DNA of 44,099 nt, from sequence record OP087522.1; one strand, given 5' to 3'. The position numbers and the translations under genes were made by a program. Below are positions 2,009 to 44,099 of this stretch, piece by piece. A model generated the notes under the pieces. That model worked only from the letters and a program-made list of their open reading frames with translations. It had not been told where the DNA came from and searched no databases. The stretch is from Escherichia phage TR1. Numbering within the stretch: position 1 is the first letter of the stretch; each line of letters starts with the position of its first letter.

Positions 2009-2051
2009 ATTATGCCTGATTTCTCCGGCGATTGTTTAGCAATTCGTGCTA
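2009..2051 (-). promoter_or_regulatory. promoter cassette copy: palindrome TAGCA-ATTCG-TGCTA (2037-2051), 22-bp spacer, -10 CATAAT (2009-2014)
   Basis: Exact spacing measured in sequence; palindrome overlaps stop codon of gene 2049..2579. Confidence 0.55.
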
Positions 2052-2579
2052 TTGTCCATTCATGAGTAACTTAGCTTTCCTATAAAACTCCATCGCCACC
2101 TCAACCTCTTCCTCACTGTACCGCAAGTGGTATGGTAGTCTACTAGTGTGCTCACCTTCGTATACTTTGAGGTTAGGTTCCCATCTCTCCTCTAGGATTG
2201 CGGGATGAACGTAAACCCTATCGCCAATTAGACATGTAAGATTCATCTTGTCGAGTTCTGGAATAAGCTCATCTTTAATGCGTGCAAATAGGCCAATTTC
2301 TCGCCCAACAAATGGCTTCAACTTGCGCACGCCTTCGTATATGGATTTAACCACGAACACACCTTTCCCGTGCCTTCCCATTCTCCTAATGACTTTAATG
2401 AGCACAGCAAGCTCACTACCTTCGTAGATTGACGACGCATCAGGCTTACCCCAAAATACCTGGGCTTGTCGATACCCGTTCTCATTGATTGCTACTCGTA
2501 GCGGAGGTAAACCATCTTTTTCTGCGATTTCAATTACCCGCTCATCTGTCAGTTTATCTTCGGTGAAATCAAACATCAT
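2049..2579 (-). CDS. hypothetical protein, internally deleted paralog of the 527-aa protein at 5233..6816
   Basis: N-terminus (FDFxEDKL...LPPLRVAINxNGYRQ) and C-terminal block (GKxGKGV...RKxKPF...RIKDxLxPxLDxxNxTCLIGD) align to the ends of the 527-aa ORF; central region absent. Confidence 0.6.
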   Translation of the reverse strand: MMFDFTEDKLTDERVIEIAEKDGLPPLRVAINENGYRQAQVFWGKPDASSIYEGSELAVLIKVIRRMGRHGKGVFVVKSIYEGVRKLKPFVGREIGLFARIKDELIPELDKMNLTCLIGDRVYVHPAILEERWEPNLKVYEGEHTSRLPYHLRYSEEEVEVAMEFYRKAKLLMNGQ

Positions 2580-3124
2580 TTAGCCTCCTTAATCATTTCC
2601 TGGTATGCAGATAGTGCGAGCAGGGCACCTTCAAGTTTTTCACCACTCAAGTGGATAATGCTCGGGGTGACTGCCAAAAGTCGTTTCTTGAATCTCTCAA
2701 TGGTAGCCGCCTCTTTATCAGCTTCCTGTTTCTTCTTCTCCCGATTGCCAGTCCAGTGCGCTCCGTTCTCAATATATATAACAAGGTACTTATCAGCGCC
2801 GTCGCCATCAAATTGCCTTGCGTTTGTCTGCTCCCCTTCGTCATCAATCCAGATAAACTTGTATCGCGCCCTCTTGTTTGCGTCTCGCAAGTCCGTCATT
2901 CGTGACACAGTGTTGTAGATGTATGAGTTCTTAAGCTCAGGTAATGACCTGTCTGCCAAATTTAATATCTCATCTGTTTCGGTGTCATACTCCATTTCCG
3001 GGTACGACCTTCCGCGAATCATTTTGAATATCTGGCTGACTGGAACCTTAAACTCACCACTTTCCGATTCCATCGCCTTTCGTACCATCTCACGGATAAC
3101 TTCACCAAGCGTTACTTTCTGCAT
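2576..3124 (-). CDS. hypothetical early protein (182 aa)
   Basis: ORF track; first gene of leftward transcription unit leaving the 3125-3827 control region. Confidence 0.55.
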   Translation of the reverse strand: MQKVTLGEVIREMVRKAMESESGEFKVPVSQIFKMIRGRSYPEMEYDTETDEILNLADRSLPELKNSYIYNTVSRMTDLRDANKRARYKFIWIDDEGEQTNARQFDGDGADKYLVIYIENGAHWTGNREKKKQEADKEAATIERFKKRLLAVTPSIIHLSGEKLEGALLALSAYQEMIKEAK

Positions 3125-3316
3125 TTCAAATACCTCGTTGTTGTGTGCTGCGTTTCAGTGATTACCATAGTGCCAGTGATTTACGTGTCGGTCAATGTAT
3201 ATTTTAGTATATTTCATCATAGATACGCTTTTTATCCATAGCAGCCCTATCTGCACTGGATGTAACCTTGCTGTATCCGCTGTGTACAGTTTTTCGAGGT
3301 AATTTCCTATATATGT

Positions 3317-3357
3317 GCCTTTTTGTTCTGACAAGTGTCATCCTATTCTGACAAGTG
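3317..3357. promoter_or_regulatory. tandem operator-like palindromes (TTCTGACAAGTGTCA; second copy a perfect 18-bp palindrome TTCTGACAAGTGTCAGAA), 23 bp centre-to-centre
   Basis: Direct reading: two copies at 3317-3331 and 3340-3357. Confidence 0.5.
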
Positions 3358-3397
3358 TCAGAATATAACAGAGGAATATATCAACTATTTCATCTAT

Positions 3398-3470
3398 GAG
3401 CGGTATACACAGTATACATATAATAATAATAATAATAATAATAAAGAAGAAGTATATATATATTATATAC
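3398..3470. repeat. repeat element with (AAT/TAA)8 microsatellite and flanking TATACACAGTA / ATATATAT blocks; second copy at 22843-22905
   Basis: Microsatellite 3421-3444; aligned by eye to 22843-22905, which has 5 units. Confidence 0.6.
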
Positions 3471-3639
3471 TTATAGTGTATATCCAGTGTATATGTCGCG
3501 TAAAAACCGTAGGTTAGTGGTCACTTACTTTTATGACCACACTGAGTATACATTAGTTACACGTATACAGGAAATGGTCCAGCCAGAATCAAAATCAACT
3601 TGTATGGTAGTCCATCCACCATTCATTCACCATCACATC

Positions 3640-3742
3640 AATAATTGCAAATTCTGCAACAATCAAAAACATCATTGCATCAGATGCAATATTGCTATAT
3701 GTGCAATAATGAGATGAATCATTGCAATAACTGCAATAATAC
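3640..3742. repeat. iteron-like cluster of at least 7 TGCAAT(AA) / ATCATTGCA repeats
   Basis: Direct reading of repeated 6-9-mers within about 100 bp of non-coding DNA. Confidence 0.5.
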
Positions 3743-3766
3743 ATAAACCCAACGAATAGCACTTTT

Positions 3767-3810
3767 TGCTAATGACATTCATTGGCGGCGGGACCATAAT
3801 GAATCCATCA
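3767..3810 (+). promoter_or_regulatory. promoter cassette copy (plus orientation): palindrome TAGCA-CTTTT-TGCTA (3767-3781), 23-bp spacer, -10 CATAAT (3805-3810)
   Basis: Same architecture as minus-strand copies; leader CCATCAACAACGAGGAGAG then ATG at 3828. Confidence 0.5.
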
Positions 3811-3827
3811 ACAACGAGGAGAGAGAT

Positions 3828-4025
3828 ATGAAACTTAAAGACGAAGCGTATGAGCAGCTAAAGCAGGAATGCGCTCTGATTGGGTTGAACGAGATGTACA
3901 GCGATATGGTTTTGCGCGGCAAGATTGATATTGACCTCGCTAAGCAATTCCAGTCAGATGATGAGTATCTATGTTGTGATGGCTTGGGCTGTGACGAATG
4001 TTTACCCTGGCAAGGAATGAGATGA
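3828..4025 (+). CDS. hypothetical small protein (65 aa, Cys-rich C-terminus)
   Basis: ORF track; GAGGAG RBS upstream. Confidence 0.5.
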   Translation: MKLKDEAYEQLKQECALIGLNEMYSDMVLRGKIDIDLAKQFQSDDEYLCCDGLGCDECLPWQGMR

Positions 4026-5232: not shown

Positions 5233-6816
5233 ATGTTTGATTTCAACGAAGATAAACTATCTGTTGAACAAGTTATGGCGATTGCCGCGACCGACAACCT
5301 CCCACCGCTTCGCGTGGCCATTAATGCAAATGGCTATCGGCAGTCTCAATCATTCTGGAAAACACCTGTGGAGATTGACGCAGGTAATGACAAGTACCCT
5401 GTAATATCTCTAGGCAATGACATTGATGTTGTTGGTAAGCTCTCGGCAAATATTGCTCGCTCAGTTCAGTTCCCAGAGTCATCAGCATACATGCACTTTT
5501 TGGGTTGTGTGTCCGCTGCGATGCTAGGGCGCTTTACTGTTGAGTATCACGGAACCCAGCAGCCAACATCGCTTTACGTGGTAACTAGCCAGCCGCCATC
5601 TACTGGTAAGTCAGCCATTAACTCTCTGTCAATTGCGCCAATGATTGCTGAGACTGAGCGTTTGAACGAGGTGCGTAAACGTGACCGCAAAAAGATTATG
5701 GCTAAGCTGTCTGCGCTAGCAAAAGAAATGAAACAGGAGAAGTCACCATCTGAGATGGCTTCACTGTTTGAGGAGAAGGAAGATTTAGAGGAAAAGCTCG
5801 AGAAGCTGTGCGATATCGTATTCCCGGTCTCAGATACTACGCCAGAAGGTCTTGCACGAATCAACAACCGCCAGGGTAACTTTGCGGTCATCTCGGATGA
5901 GGCAACAAGCGTCAACTCATTATTGGGCATGACATACGGTGATGGTTCCAAGAAAACGAACAGCGAGCTTGTACTTAAAGCGTGGGATGCTGGTAACGTA
6001 TCTATTGCCCGCGCTAACGCAGAAAACAACATGAGTTTCGTGGCAATGGGGTGCATCTCTGTAATTGCTCAGGATGAAACAATCAATGCGATTATGAATG
6101 CTGGTGCGCGTGGTATTGGTGTTTCCGAGCGTTTCCTTCTGGTGCGTGAAAAGTCATTTCTTGGAGACCGCGTGTTTGTTGATGAGAATGGCGATTCAAC
6201 ATACGAGGCTATTGATGGTGGTCTTAAGGCAGGCTATTTCCGTCTCGTTCATGAAATTATGAATGAAGTTGAAGTGAAACTGACAGTAAGTGCGTCATCC
6301 ATGCGCTACCTTAACCGAGCTCGCCAGGAAATGGAACCGCATCTTGGTGATGGCGGTAAATATTCCCACACGATGTTACGTGGTGCTCTTGGTAAATTTG
6401 ATAAGCAAGCAATCCGTATTGCCTCAGTATTGCACGTTATTCGCAACTGGTTCGCACCGGCAGGGTCGAGTCCGCAGAAATCAAGAGAGATTGAGCTTGA
6501 AACAATGCAAGAAGCGGTTATGATTTTCCACGAGTTAAGCAAGACTTATTTGTCGTCCGCTAGTGCTGCTGGTCATGCTGGTGATAATGCTGAAATGAAT
6601 AAGCTGGTTGATATCCTGATTAAGCAAGGTAAGAATGGGAAGGGTGTTGTTGGCGTTCGCTCACTGTATGAAGCAGCACGCAAAGTTAAACCTTTTGAAG
6701 GACAGGCTGGCGTAATGACTCGCATCAAGGACCACTTGGTTCCTATGCTTGATGAGAAAAACTATACATGCCTGATTGGTGATAAGATTTACATTAATCC
6801 GCGATTGTTGGGGTGA
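5233..6816 (+). CDS. large early protein with P-loop-like motif (VTSQPPSTGKS); function unknown, possibly replication-associated NTPase
   Basis: ORF track 527 aa; GGAGAGAAG RBS; motif read from translation; family assignment not verifiable without a search. Confidence 0.6.
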   Translation: MFDFNEDKLSVEQVMAIAATDNLPPLRVAINANGYRQSQSFWKTPVEIDAGNDKYPVISLGNDIDVVGKLSANIARSVQFPESSAYMHFLGCVSAAMLGRFTVEYHGTQQPTSLYVVTSQPPSTGKSAINSLSIAPMIAETERLNEVRKRDRKKIMAKLSALAKEMKQEKSPSEMASLFEEKEDLEEKLEKLCDIVFPVSDTTPEGLARINNRQGNFAVISDEATSVNSLLGMTYGDGSKKTNSELVLKAWDAGNVSIARANAENNMSFVAMGCISVIAQDETINAIMNAGARGIGVSERFLLVREKSFLGDRVFVDENGDSTYEAIDGGLKAGYFRLVHEIMNEVEVKLTVSASSMRYLNRARQEMEPHLGDGGKYSHTMLRGALGKFDKQAIRIASVLHVIRNWFAPAGSSPQKSREIELETMQEAVMIFHELSKTYLSSASAAGHAGDNAEMNKLVDILIKQGKNGKGVVGVRSLYEAARKVKPFEGQAGVMTRIKDHLVPMLDEKNYTCLIGDKIYINPRLLG

Positions 6817-11055: not shown

Positions 11056-11307
11056 TCATACAACCTCCTTCAGCCAGTAATCAATTAAATTCGCACTAAT
11101 TGCTAATTTCTCGTCCAGGTCAGTCATGCAGAGATTGCCGCACGCTGGCGAGTAATAAATCTGAACCCACTTTCCATCCTTCGTCTTCGCATTAACATCC
11201 GCATAGTCAGGAGGAAACCAATCAGCAATAGGTATCGCCCTAAACTTAGCACCACTACTCCCACGCACCAAATCATAATGCTCAGGCTGAAAATCTAATC
11301 CAAACAT
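11056..11307 (-). CDS. hypothetical protein (83 aa)
   Basis: ORF track. Confidence 0.45.
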   Translation of the reverse strand: MFGLDFQPEHYDLVRGSSGAKFRAIPIADWFPPDYADVNAKTKDGKWVQIYYSPACGNLCMTDLDEKLAISANLIDYWLKEVV

Positions 11308-22694: not shown

Positions 22695-22842
22695 CTCGGC
22701 CCAGCTATAGCTTAATGTAACTAGTGTGTATATCGTGTATACCGTTTCTCGCTAAGGGTGCATCGGTATAGCTGCCGCGCAATACTGTATAAATCCACAT
22801 GATATTAAAATTATAACCGGAACACTCTATAGAAGTAGTTAC

Positions 22843-22905
22843 ATGATATACACAGTAATATATAATAATAATAATAAGAGTAAAAGCTTGATATATATAG
22901 ATATT
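22843..22905. repeat. second copy of (AAT)n-containing repeat element (5 units) with GTATAC/GTAAC motifs nearby
   Basis: TATACACAGTA-ATATATAATAATAATAATAA aligned by eye to 3398-3446. Confidence 0.6.
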
Positions 22906-23002
22906 TTAATGTAACTAATGCGTAACTAGGCGTAACAGCGCGTATACCATTTTCCGCGGACGAGATTGTATACACCGAGTTACATCGGTTACGCGTATAC
23001 AA

Positions 23003-23046
23003 TAGCACGAATAGCTAAAGACTCCGTAATCATCCTTTGCTATAGT
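23003..23046 (+). promoter_or_regulatory. promoter cassette copy (plus): palindrome TAGCA-CGAAT-AGCTA (23003-23017), 23-bp spacer, -10 TATAGT (23041-23046), leader CATCGAAACGAAA
   Basis: Measured. Confidence 0.55.
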
Positions 23047-23086
23047 TACTCCATCGAAACGAAACACACTCACTAAGGAATACAAA

Positions 23087-23317
23087 ATGACTAACTTCAT
23101 CAAATCAGCAATAATCGCGGCAGCAGTAATCATGACTGTAGGTTGTTCTTCCGGACCCCGACCTGACGGTTGGTGCGCGACTGAAGTTAACGGCTCATGT
23201 GTTGCTAAATGGAAAGGAGGTGTAGTTGTAGCTTCAGGTGAAACAGATATCCGCTGGGATGGTATCAAAAACTTCTCTGGATCAGTTAAAGATCATGGCA
23301 CAAAGGAGTGGAAATAA
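23087..23317 (+). CDS. small lipoprotein (76 aa), candidate Cor/Llp-like superinfection-exclusion protein
   Basis: Signal peptide with lipobox (IMTVGCSS); beside the J-like tail tip gene on the opposite strand with its own promoter. Confidence 0.5.
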
Positions 23318-28348: not shown

Positions 28349-29087
28349 AAATTACATCCTCTGGTAAATCCTTATGGCGAACAATGCGAACAGTTCGCTC
28401 GCGCCAGTAATCGGAATAAATATCTACAGAACTCATTTTACCATAAAGGTGATGTATGAATCTGTTGTTGCCAATGTAGATTCCTGCGTGGTTAGTAACC
28501 TCGCTTTGTACTTGCATCATGATCATTGAGCCAATTGGAATATCTGAAGTTTTTACTAGCTCAAAACCTTCCTTAACCCAGTTGTCGTCATAGATATTTT
28601 CCCCGTACCTCTTCTCCCACCACGGGTAATTAACTCGGTAGTCGTTTAGTTTGACGCTGTATTTTTTGTGAAATCCCATGACTAACTCCCAGCAATCAAA
28701 GCTACCCAAACCCCACGGTCGACCAATCAGTGGCATTGTTGATGGTTCAAGTATCCTCATGTCTCCTTCTGGAATACTGACGATAACATAAGGGATCTCG
28801 CACTCGTTGCAGCTACAGATATCCGCTGGGCTAGGTCTTGTTGTCGCACCATCACCAGTGTGGGAGTGAACTACGTAAACAATTGACTCGTTATCAACCA
28901 GATTAAATGCAATGTCGGCATACTCATTTGAATCAAGTACAAACTCATTTTCAGGGTCTTTGCTGACATTGGTTATTCTATGATACTTCTGCGCACGACC
29001 CTTCTGCGTAACAACTCCACAGCACTCATGCGGGTAAACTTCCTTTGCGTGCTGGAAAATTTCCAGTTTAACCTTTGAACTTAACAT
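28329..29087 (-). CDS. tail assembly protein K-like (JAB/MPN plus NlpC/P60)
   Basis: HSHTGDGATTRPSPADI (JAB-like) and Cys/His peptidase motifs; start moved to ATG 29087 (GAGGGA RBS) from ORF-track 29174. Confidence 0.65.
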   Translation of the reverse strand: MLSSKVKLEIFQHAKEVYPHECCGVVTQKGRAQKYHRITNVSKDPENEFVLDSNEYADIAFNLVDNESIVYVVHSHTGDGATTRPSPADICSCNECEIPYVIVSIPEGDMRILEPSTMPLIGRPWGLGSFDCWELVMGFHKKYSVKLNDYRVNYPWWEKRYGENIYDDNWVKEGFELVKTSDIPIGSMIMMQVQSEVTNHAGIYIGNNRFIHHLYGKMSSVDIYSDYWRERTVRIVRHKDLPEDVIYDPETD

Positions 29088-36629: not shown

Positions 36630-37042
36630 CGGCAACCGCACCCACCGCCAGCAGCGGAAGTAATCAATCCAAATCCGCCGCCTTTCTTGCGGAGAAGTGC
36701 CTTGTACATGCGACCCCAAGAGGAAGATGATAAGTCACCCTGGATTGCTGATTGATTATCATAAGTGATAGAGAACTCACCGCTCAGTGCGTAACTTGCC
36801 ATTCTACGACTGTATGTTTCCAAGCCTTCATTCTCCCCCTTAAATGCGCCATCAGAAAGCATCAGGTGTAGTGCATAAAGGCCCACAGCGCGATCTGCAT
36901 CATTACCAAACTTATCCGCACATACGTAGAGACGCGCCAAATCGATCCACACATTAATTGATTCATCATCCACTGCCTTGAGCGCAGGAACAAGCGATCG
37001 CATAAACGCCAAGATTTCATCATTCATATTAGCTCCATACAA
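36626..37042 (-). CDS. head completion / connector-like protein (putative)
   Basis: Gene order downstream of capsid gene; 138 aa. Confidence 0.4.
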   Translation of the reverse strand: MYGANMNDEILAFMRSLVPALKAVDDESINVWIDLARLYVCADKFGNDADRAVGLYALHLMLSDGAFKGENEGLETYSRRMASYALSGEFSITYDNQSAIQGDLSSSSWGRMYKALLRKKGGGFGLITSAAGGGCGCR

Positions 37043-42999: not shown

Positions 43000-43506
43000 T
43001 TACGCTCTCGTATTTAGGTAGCCTTTATTTTCAGAGCCATGATTTTCATGATATCCGTTCAATTTGTCATACTGCGACCTTGCCAATGCAGCCTCCTCTA
43101 TAGTGTCCTTGTAGCATATGAAGACTGTTTTACCAAACTCTCTAGCCTGAACAAGCCATCTATTCTCTCTTTTGCACCAGCTTACACCGTTTATTCCGCT
43201 TTTATTTCTTGATGATAGTGATCTGTTATTTGAGTTCTCTTTATTGCTTACTAACCTTAAGTTCTCTATTCTATTGTCACTTCTATTTTGGTTTATGTGA
43301 TCTATGTACATGCCTTTAGGGATTGCTCCATTGTGCATCTCCCACACCACCCTGTGACACCTGTATGCTTTTTGTCTATACTTTAGTATCACATAGCCAA
43401 ATTTATCAACTCTTCCGGCCACCTCTCCAACCTTTGATACATTTGCTACTTTTACCTTTCTTATTAAAAGCCCGTCTCTATATTCAAAAATATCATGCCA
43501 ATTCAT
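43000..43506 (-). CDS. HNH-AP2 homing endonuclease (paralog family copy 4) inserted between TerS and TerL
   Basis: MNWHDIFEY..., HRVVWEMHNG...DHINQNRSDNRIENLR, AP2-like C-terminus; own promoter cassette. Confidence 0.75.
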   Translation of the reverse strand: MNWHDIFEYRDGLLIRKVKVANVSKVGEVAGRVDKFGYVILKYRQKAYRCHRVVWEMHNGAIPKGMYIDHINQNRSDNRIENLRLVSNKENSNNRSLSSRNKSGINGVSWCKRENRWLVQAREFGKTVFICYKDTIEEAALARSQYDKLNGYHENHGSENKGYLNTRA

Positions 43507-43534: not shown

Positions 43535-43577
43535 ATTATCTCATTGATTGGGCCTCTTCTTTTAACAAAAAGTGCTA
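43535..43577 (-). promoter_or_regulatory. promoter cassette copy: palindrome TAACA-AAAAG-TGCTA (43563-43577), 22-bp spacer with hairpin, -10 GATAAT (43535-43540)
   Basis: Measured. Confidence 0.5.
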
Positions 43578-44099
43578 CAGCTTACTAATCACAGACTCCA
43601 GCGCTTCCTTCATCGTGCCAACGTCGTTAGCTGAAGAGTTATTGCTTATAGTAATCTCCTGCGGCTTATCGATGCCAAGTTCTTTGGAAATCATGCCAGG
43701 GTTAACAATGCCAGACGCTGCCAGCTGATACTTCTGCTCGCGAATCACGGAATCAATGAATGCAATTACCTCGTCATAACCCGCCGACTTCCTCCATTTC
43801 TCTATTGCGCTATGGGTAACACCGCAGTAAAGGCAGAATCCTGTTAGTGTGAAGACTCGTGGCTTGTGCACCAGATTCTCGGTTACGACACCCTGGAAGC
43901 TGGCTGTCTCAATTGCCTTGATTGCCTGGCTCTCAGCCCATGAGAAGTATTTCACGGCCAGGTCGAATAGCTGCTCTGGGGTCATTATTCGGTTTTTGGA
44001 CAGAGTTGTAATGTCAGAATACTTTTTGTTGTACATGGCTTTGAAGTTGCCAGAGCGAATCTTTTCTTGCGCCTGGCTGGTGAAGTTTTCGTCTTTCAT
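43575..44099 (-). CDS. terminase small subunit (starts at window edge)
   Basis: 174 aa with HTH-like N-terminal region; position immediately upstream of TerL (separated by HNH insertion). Confidence 0.55.
   Translation of the reverse strand: MKDENFTSQAQEKIRSGNFKAMYNKKYSDITTLSKNRIMTPEQLFDLAVKYFSWAESQAIKAIETASFQGVVTENLVHKPRVFTLTGFCLYCGVTHSAIEKWRKSAGYDEVIAFIDSVIREQKYQLAASGIVNPGMISKELGIDKPQEITISNNSSANDVGTMKEALESVISKL

Follow-up and report, generated by a model that had tools for sequence, protein, structure and literature searches.

A 703-bp intergenic region of Escherichia phage TR1 is probably the genome-end control region of a T1-like phage

Results and Discussion

The stretch analyzed here is the 44,099-bp sequence of Escherichia phage TR1 (record OP087522.1, referred to as the window), and our subject is its 703-bp gap at 3125–3827, located between a leftward gene encoding a DUF7174 protein (2576..3124) and a rightward gene at 3828..4025. 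We conclude that this gap is probably the 'genome-end' control region of a T1-like phage, that is, constrained non-coding DNA in which cis-acting elements stand side by side, namely a packaging start (pac), an array of TGCAA-type sites, an early promoter, a candidate replication origin and a candidate operator. An earlier note on this DNA had likened the gap to an operator/promoter hub; a non-coding cis-acting hub ending in a rightward promoter is indeed what we find, but the role as packaging start had been missed, as the termini of related phages fall at 3589–3616. Packaging initiation, absent from that note, is the best-documented function of the homologous region in these relatives. Conservation within the gap was read from an alignment of the window with phiA2-1, Sd1, 12210I and BEK1-1, which carry the whole gap (five phages, two subfamilies), and the elements from left to right are:

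3125..3320, minus strand: leftward promoter zone with TTGACC (3189–3194), 17-nt spacing and CACTAT, proposed from reading the sequence
3326..3365, no strand: two copies of TTCTGACAAGTGTCA, the second forming TTCTGAC-N4-GTCAGAA, a candidate operator (five-phage alignment)
3403..3417, no strand: GTATAC pair at the left edge of the AT core, CGGTATACAC, invariant in the five phages
3413..3477, no strand: AT core, 92% A+T, made of (AAT)8, a purine run and a (TA) run; candidate DNA unwinding element
3476..3513, plus strand: three to four direct GYGTAWN repeats with 9–11 bp phasing (GTGTATA 3476, GTGTATA 3487, GCGTAAA 3498, CCGTAGG 3507)
3489..3568, no strand: imperfect dyad of ~80 bp made of oppositely oriented repeats, a DNA symmetry
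3589..3616, minus strand: putative pac cut zone, headful packaging leftward; overlaps the invariant block AAAATCAACTTGTATGGTAGTC (3591–3612)
3640..3740, no strand: TGCAA array of three 23-bp inverted-repeat units, O1 (3640–3663), O2 (3671–3693) and O3 (3717–3740)
3754..3774, plus strand: copy of the 21-nt direct repeat (aaATAGCACnnnTTGnTAAAA) known from intergenic regions of the T1 family, 74 nt before the ATG at 3828
3772..3800, plus strand: predicted sigma-70-like early promoter ATGACA-17-CATAAT, 10/12 matches

The packaging start is documented by the genome ends of four relatives, which in genomes of 44–46 kb all lie within 28 bp of each other when transferred to the window:

SU57, between 3589 and 3590: end determined by PhageTerm
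MSK, between 3607 and 3608: end determined by PhageTerm
UDF157lw, between 3614 and 3615: record break, the record having been re-ordered by PhageTerm
Rao1, between 3615 and 3616: record break

The ends of UDF157lw and Rao1 fall at nearly the same aligned column. In the MSK paper the PhageTerm terminus is given at position 36,862 (P 1.6e-9, forward direction), and the SU57 paper describes a PhageTerm end in this untranslated region, with pac of T1 lying in the equivalent region. In GenBank, the T1 record likewise opens within the homologous gap, here 700 bp long, its base 1 being separated by 162 bp from the first gene to one side and by 538 bp from the homologue of the DUF7174 gene to the other; bases 1–2800 are annotated as a terminal repeat. 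The record of TLS, the pac site of which was mapped by restriction analysis, opens in the homologous gap of 783 bp. All records starting at the terminus run leftward in the orientation of the window, toward the terminase genes, in agreement with the T1 terminal repeat, and the gene of the small terminase (TerS) is found ~3.6 kb downstream of the cut zone in this packaging direction. The invariant block AAAATCAACTTGTATGGTAGTC includes the small dyad ATGG-TAGT-CCAT, and in the Rogunavirinae its position is taken by another block which is likewise a dyad, CAACTAGTTG. As the ends of four relatives fall within 28 bp over an invariant block and share the leftward direction, we conclude that 3589–3616 is the pac cut zone; termini at the site as well as unidirectional packaging with terminal redundancy were found in the relatives, and for this phage we infer the cut zone from them. 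A terminase cut at 3589–3616 would begin headful packaging, proceeding leftward via the DUF7174 gene toward the terminase genes. A scan of IMG/VR with the invariant 20-mer returned only seven contigs, all of them known isolates, and added nothing new on the ends.

The proteins that come into question for the elements of the gap are encoded nearby or, in the case of TerS, at the end of the window:

2049..2579, minus strand: paralog of the DUF3987 helicase, 176 aa, which keeps only the N-terminal 45 aa and the C-terminal winged-helix domain
2576..3124, minus strand: DUF7174 protein, 182 aa, first leftward gene; its allele co-varies with the left ~295 bp of the gap
5233..6816, plus strand: DUF3987 helicase-like protein, 527 aa (Pfam PF13148, E 6e-40); the counterpart in T1 ST9 is annotated as 'DNA helicase'
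43575..44099, minus strand: small terminase TerS of the P22 gp3 family (Pfam PF16677 GP3_package, E 4e-12; TR2 annotation)

Right of the cut zone seven exact TGCAAT/ATTGCA sites are packed into 94 bp (3644–3737), where 0.1 would be expected from the 54 sites in the 44-kb window, which corresponds to a Poisson P of ~2e-11, or ~9e-9 when corrected for the number of windows. At least seven TGCAAT repeats had been noted here before and taken as iterons; the repeats are present beyond chance, but they are organized as three inverted-repeat units that occur only here in the genome. A further half-site is located at 3702–3710. Across 19 phages the arms ATCATTGCA and TGCAATATT are conserved and the 5–6-bp spacers vary (O2 reads ATCATTGCA-N5-TGCAATATT), and this pattern marks binding sites of dimeric proteins. 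In the window the cluster is confined to this single locus, none being present near the other 15 copies of the 21-nt repeat described below. Base 1 of T1 aligns at about position 3690, at the start of a GTTGCA-N5-TGCAAC unit of T1. Most likely the array would aid pac recognition by a TerS of the P22 gp3 type, which would cut 25–130 bp away. Alternatively or additionally, the units may represent upstream control sites for the adjacent promoter, and this role appears nearly as likely; pac recognition is favoured because the cluster is unique in the genome, as pac must be.

T1 is reported to start packaging between the lambda genes P and Q ('esp'). The best match of the T1 gap to the 39.6–44 kb region of lambda is the 13-mer TTGTTGCATGGTG, which straddles T1 base 1 in a TGCAA-type palindrome, but its score was equalled by 5 of 30 shuffled sequences, so that the match is suggestive and by itself not significant. 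The TTGCAT half-sites resemble the CytR half-site GTTGCATT, a point in favour of a role in transcriptional control. In TLS two tandem palindromic 14-mers, AGACCAATCGGTCT, are located just upstream of the 21-nt repeat (TLS gap index 680–708, window orientation), and this pair, placed like the TGCAA array, may be an analogous protein-binding element of other sequence.

At its right end the gap carries the predicted early promoter at 3772–3800, followed by a ribosome-binding site (GAGGAG, 3816–3821) and the ATG at 3828. Its -10 hexamer is conserved in 19 phages as TATAGT, TATATT or CATAAT, the site thus having the form of a sigma-70 promoter, and rightward early transcription would begin here, preceded by one copy of the 21-nt repeat. 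This copy shows ATAGCACTTTTTGCTAA at 3756–3772 and matches the consensus aaATAGCACnnnTTGnTAAAA with no mismatches. The search with ATAGCACnnnTTGnTAA gave 16 matches in the window, where 1.5 are expected:

1119, 2036, 3756, 4566, 5159, 8611, 9821, 11090, 12161, 14652, 16654, 20894, 23002, 30774, 34714 and 43562: positions of the matches to the 21-nt repeat

Thus, the plus-strand promoter cassette pointed out in the earlier note is present but not specific to this region, being one of 16 copies of a published genome-wide repeat. The copies fall into three spacer classes (TTT, GAA and A/T-AA), which matches the TLS report. Wherever a comparison with the list of open reading frames (ORFs) or with TR2 was made, the 15 matches in gene-flanking positions with at most two mismatches follow the local gene strand; the match at 11090 (plus strand) has two mismatches, is located amid minus-strand genes and may be due to chance. 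Among the 16 matches in the window there is no copy before the DUF7174 gene. In the TLS paper (PMC11447400) the repeat is placed ~76 nt upstream of the start codon and its function is left unexplained, possible roles being a stoperator-like site, an enhancer site or an UP element. The copy at 3754..3774 adjoins a conserved -35/-10 pair, which favours its reading as UP element or activator site.

The middle of the gap is dominated by the AT core. The trinucleotide tract (AAT)8 at 3420–3444 comprises 8.3 copies with 100% match according to Tandem Repeats Finder, and GTATAC is found at 3403, 3412, 3546 and 3563 (16 sites in the window compared to 6.7 expected), so that the (AAT)8 microsatellite with GTATAC-type flanks was correctly recognized before. 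Nearest-neighbour energies calculated for segments of 40, 60 and 100 bp identified 3418–3477 as the least stable 60-bp duplex of the window (z 5.65), and the AT core is also the least stable segment at 40 and 100 bp. The second least stable segment (z 4.8; the third-ranked reaches 3.15) is a twin AT core at 22855, and in T1 two AT cores likewise rank first and second with z 5.59 and 5.37, followed by 3.7 for the third. The layout of phased direct repeats beside the core is also present in TR2 (GTGTAAG, GCGTAGC and two GCGTAAC), in T1 (two GCGTAAT and, in phase with them, one GTATAC site further on), and it recurs in the second gap of both the window and TR2. The inverted counterparts of the phased repeats span 3546–3568 with a GTATAC/GTTAC cluster at 3546, 3556 and 3563, and the resulting dyad of ~80 bp contains GTGGTCA-N10-TGACCAC (3517–3523/3534–3540). 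RNAalifold predicts a large fold for 3480–3625, the covariation term of which is a penalty. As 0 of its 33 pairs covary, we consider the dyad a symmetry of the DNA and reject a conserved RNA structure, the fold arising from the dyad arrangement of the repeats with 0 compensatory pairs.

The twin AT core belongs to a second module of the same build, located in the second divergent gap of the window:

22695..23086, no strand: twin module between a gene for a 115-aa protein and a Cor-type lipoprotein gene

It contains two GTGTATA repeats (22726 and 22735), an AT core with (AAT)n/(TA)n at 22855–22914 and four phased repeats at 22911, 22922, 22932 and 22942 (GTAAC/GCGTAAC/GCGTATAC), followed by an inverted cluster at 22968–22995 and the 21-nt repeat copy at 23002; a sigma-70-like GTTACA-17-TATAAT is found at 22838–22866. 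This second gap is conserved at 80–93% across the family. Both gaps share a near-identical stretch in the same orientation (TATACACAGTA-ATATATAATAATAAT and TATACACAGTA-ATATATAATAATAATAA), and AAGTAAAAGGTTGATATATATAGATATT, present in the first gap of Sd1, 12210I and BEK1-1, is found in the second gap of the window with two base changes. TLS possesses two comparable AT cores with its own repeats TGTTCACG and TTTGTTCTTTTTGT in both gaps, and the first gap of TR2 shows CGTAAC-type repeats in place of the GTATAC-type repeats of this phage. Signs of concerted evolution of the two modules are clear in TLS and in this phage and only loose in T1, and lineage-specific repeats common to both modules point to a phage-encoded binding protein.

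Both modules combine an AT-rich unwinding element with at least three direct repeats beside it in helical phase, the anatomy of an iteron origin, and would most likely serve as DNA-unwinding element plus initiator sites, which makes them candidate origins. According to both the TLS paper (PMC11447400) and the SU57 paper, no origin of T1-like phages had been found. The candidate origins could be served by the DUF3987 helicase. Across the gap its C-terminal winged-helix domain is encoded a second time without the helicase part, in the 176-aa paralog, which is made up of counterparts of the N-terminal 45 aa (69% identity) and the C-terminal 77 aa (47% identity) of the helicase. In both proteins the winged-helix domain is of the kind found in the origin recognition complex (ORC/Cdc6-like), making the helicase a candidate initiator-helicase with a putative DNA-binding domain of the initiator kind; a comparison of DUF3987 with the sequences in the PDB gave nothing useful. 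As a tentative model, the modules at 3403–3570 and 22726–23000 could be the replication origins of the T1 family and act as a pair like P4 ori/crr, with the DUF3987 helicase as initiator via its winged-helix domain and the winged-helix paralog as regulator. One origin would then be fused to pac, and replication, early transcription and packaging would start from one 700-bp hub. A possible replication origin had been suggested in the earlier note as well, and this idea is still plausible, but the AT core with the phased GYGTAWN repeats, present twice in the genome, is a better candidate than the TGCAAT repeats. The GC skew, proposed there as a check, tracks gene orientation with sign flips at 3–4 kb, 7 kb, 14–15 kb, 19 kb and 23 kb and is uninformative on the origin.

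Several observations weigh against the reading of the gap as a genome-end control region with pac and origin. The linearisation of the Rao1 record is undocumented, and for this phage the cut zone rests on homology. Base 1 of the T1 record falls ~75 bp right of where next-generation sequencing places the termini, which limits how finely recognition site and cut site can be told from each other. TLS has no TGCAA array, and TerS is 67% identical between phages with TGCAA arrays that are >85% identical; this TerS identity (67% to Veterinaerplatzvirus, 52% to TLS) has to be read with the physical linkage of gene and site in mind, which confounds the covariation comparison. The repeats of the two T1 gaps are only loosely alike, the origin role of the AT cores is suggested by their anatomy, and operator arrays of a transcription regulator would equally fit two modules in divergent promoter gaps. 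A structure model of the DUF7174 protein (predicted local distance difference test score 78), the candidate binder of the palindrome at 3344–3365, gave only weak winged-helix-like matches.

A rival view, close to the hub of the earlier note, is purely transcriptional: all repeats are operators or activator sites of divergent early promoters, the palindrome, the GYGTAWN arrays and the TGCAA units would be bound by regulators of phage or host, and the gap has no special role in packaging or replication. Both module-bearing gaps indeed separate divergent gene clusters and contain promoter-like sites, the TGCAA array occupies about -45 to -165 relative to the rightward promoter, its conserved arms and variable spacers suit dimeric regulators, and the phage encodes proteins annotated as transcription regulators. 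Nevertheless we consider this view unlikely, since a 28-bp stretch of this gap received four independent terminus assignments, pac of T1 and TLS maps to the same gap, the other 15 copies of the 21-nt repeat have no TGCAA cluster nearby, and the AT cores as the two segments of extreme low stability in two subfamilies would be left unexplained. Slightly less probable still is a region that is chiefly a replication origin, with the TGCAAT repeats as initiator iterons and the termini of the relatives as replication-related ends or sequencing artefacts. An AT core with repeat flanks is classic origin anatomy, the gene of the DUF3987 helicase, whose winged-helix domain resembles those of origin-recognition proteins, is located 1.4 kb away, and an origin of T1-like phages would still have to be placed according to the TLS and SU57 papers. 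However, a distance of 160–260 bp, which includes the cut zone, separates the TGCAA units from the AT core; the units are inverted repeats and not phased direct repeats, and they are absent from the second module and from TLS. In addition, the termini show the one-sided, directional pattern that PhageTerm assumes for pac phages, and agree with the classical restriction mapping in TLS.

That the genome-end region is non-coding DNA under constraint follows from the comparison with related phages, a check already named in the earlier note. In the five phages 66% of the columns of the gap are invariant compared to 63% in the adjoining DUF7174 gene and 32% at its third codon positions, and the longest invariant runs are the 22 nt at 3591–3612 and the 21 nt at 3423–3443, the latter being the microsatellite itself. 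The ORFs of the gap are not conserved, showing stop codons, frameshifts or lost start codons in four relatives, and the indels among the relatives are not multiples of three; the former impression that these ORFs are repeat artefacts is borne out, and a coding potential of the gap was rejected. An Rfam search of the gap at a permissive threshold gave only chance-level matches below the gathering scores (best E 0.31 and 0.72). The broken ORFs, the lack of an Rfam match and the lack of compensatory pairs show that the constraint acts on the DNA, and the gap is non-coding DNA conserved as strongly as the neighbouring gene. A small-protein or small-RNA product as the reason for the conservation is therefore very improbable, even though the ORFs 3645..3746 (plus strand) and 3672..3797 (minus strand) are open in most relatives and BEK1-1 and TR2 each annotate one tiny hypothetical gene here, as start codons are not conserved, longer ORFs are interrupted by stops or frameshifts, indels disregard the reading frame, no Rfam match falls below E 0.3 and none of the 33 pairs covary.

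The left half of the gap contains the candidate operator. The 15-mer TTCTGACAAGTGTCA occurs in exactly two copies at 3326–3340 and 3346–3360, 20 bp apart; exact repeats of this length are very few in the window. Both had been seen before, placed ~9 bp off at 3317–3357, and the second had been described as a perfect 18-bp palindrome; it is in fact part of an inverted repeat of 10+10 nt, TATTCTGACA-AG-TGTCAGAATA (3344–3365), around a central AG which is not self-complementary. In the five phages the arms of TTCTGAC-N4-GTCAGAA are invariant and the centre is variable, the pattern of dimeric-operator half-sites, and the idea of a protein-binding palindrome is thereby strengthened. The first copy is degenerate in Sd1, 12210I and BEK1-1 and overlaps a minus-strand -35-like TTGTCA, where no promoter passed the consensus scan. 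On reading the TR2 gap, the left half of which differs, TTCTGACAAGTGTCA was not seen; the near-identical gaps of CY1 and Rao1 were not searched. The palindrome at 3344–3365 may be an operator tied to the neighbouring DUF7174 allele, which encodes 182 aa here and 159 aa in TR2; the allele and the leftmost 295 bp of the gap, palindrome included, switch as one. To the left of it, invariant runs in the five phages are found at 3130–3139, 3151–3163, 3180–3189 and 3303–3315, and the consensus promoter scan gave no minus-strand site at threshold in the leftward promoter zone. A perfect 11-nt inverted repeat, CCTCGTTGTTG at 3133–3143 and CAACAACGAGG at 3809–3819, connects the two ends of the gap, which means that the divergent first genes share CAACAACGAGG ahead of their start codons, in both cases just 5' of them. 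This suggests a common translation-initiation or leader element.

Compared to TR2, CY1 and Rao1, a mosaic replacement is visible at ~2500–3420: in place of the present DUF7174 gene and of the leftmost ~295 bp of the gap with the palindrome, these relatives have a divergent allele and different, CGTAAC-type repeats; right of the (AAT)n tract the identity to these phages is 85–97%.

Relation to known systems

The closest counterpart is the pac-containing end region of T1 and TLS, a gap of ~700–780 bp between the same divergent gene clusters with an AT core in its middle and the 21-nt repeat and promoter at its right end. The sequence, however, is largely different, and with T1 only the TGCAA part and the 21-nt repeat can be aligned. 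Pac of TLS was assigned by resemblance to P22 (AGATTT), a motif absent from this gap. For the 21-nt repeat of the TLS paper (PMC11447400) no difference was found, as the present copy matches in consensus, direction and spacing.

Repeat arrays beside the cut are known from other packaging sites, such as the hexamers of P1 pac, pacL/pacR of SPP1 and the R sites of lambda cosB. The gap shares with them a unique array of short repeats within ~130 bp of the terminase cut zone (TGCAA, with putative TerS binding), but differs in that the array is one-sided and on the side that is not packaged first. P1 pac depends on Dam methylation. A P1-type pac was rejected for the gap, as there is no GATC in 3125–3827 and the TGCAA units are located only to the right of the cut zone, and the same applies to a P22-like pac sequence, neither the P22 pac motif nor AGATTT being present in the gap. 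The 22-bp site recognized by gp3 in P22 is paralleled by a TerS of the gp3 family (PF16677) and an invariant block of 22 bp, but here the site is 3.6 kb upstream of the TerS gene and not inside it.

Regarding the candidate origins, lambda ori consists of iterons and an AT-rich tract, and ori/crr of the satellite phage P4 are two separate cis elements with iterons, to which the alpha primase-helicase binds through its winged-helix domain. Similar to these, an easily melted AT core stands beside phased short repeats, and two modules are present 19 kb apart. Also as in P4, a helicase with a C-terminal winged-helix domain is encoded, and the T1 primase is annotated as P4-alpha-like. The TLS repeat TGTTCACG moreover resembles TGTTCACC, presumably the P4 iteron. 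In contrast, DUF3987 does not belong to the P4 alpha helicase family, and compared to iteron origins the repeats are 7-mers at one-turn spacing instead of 18–22-mers, the modules are located in promoter gaps and not inside the initiator gene, and they are known here from sequence alone.

T1-like phages are among the commonest contaminants of laboratories and fermentations and are candidates for phage therapy. The kinds of element described here (pac, promoter, probable origin) are ordinary for a well-known phage family, but a description of their internal anatomy seems to be missing from the T1-family literature that we searched. The recent TLS and SU57 papers report no origin, no pac precisely defined by sequence and no explained function for the intergenic repeats. 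With the present analysis the packaging cut is narrowed to a 28-bp zone overlapping an invariant dyad block, the locus-unique TGCAA array is separated from the AT core and phased repeats which are present twice, and candidate binding proteins are named. With pac defined, transduction could be predicted or engineered more easily, and T1-like genomes could be opened at a uniform position.

Genome context and further observations

The window covers nearly all of the genome of a T1-like siphovirus (Drexlerviridae, Braunvirinae, Christensenvirus-like). Over the first 12 kb it is 97% identical to the Escherichia phages CY1, TR2 and TR3, and Rao1 shows 98% identity over the part that aligns. The gene map was taken from the annotation of TR2, a 97%-identical phage, according to which the gap at 3125–3827 is the largest intergenic gap (the next one measures ~414 bp) and separates leftward from rightward genes, in line with what the earlier note had stated. 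The leftward cluster starts with the DUF7174 gene, followed by ~10 small genes and a tRNA-Arg, and continues across the ends of the window with the small terminase and structural genes, while in the rightward cluster small genes precede the DUF3987 helicase-like gene. The tRNA-Arg (anticodon CCT) at 322–397 on the minus strand is found among the small leftward genes in TR2 and SU57 as well. Between the small and large terminase genes an ORF of 168 aa is located at 43000–43506 on the minus strand, and its TR2 counterpart is annotated as an HNH endonuclease. Finally, the exact 16-nt repeat ACAGATATCCGCTGGG is present at 23243–23258 in the lipoprotein/DUF6453 area and at 28815–28830 in the tail assembly area, both copies being coding and 5.6 kb apart.

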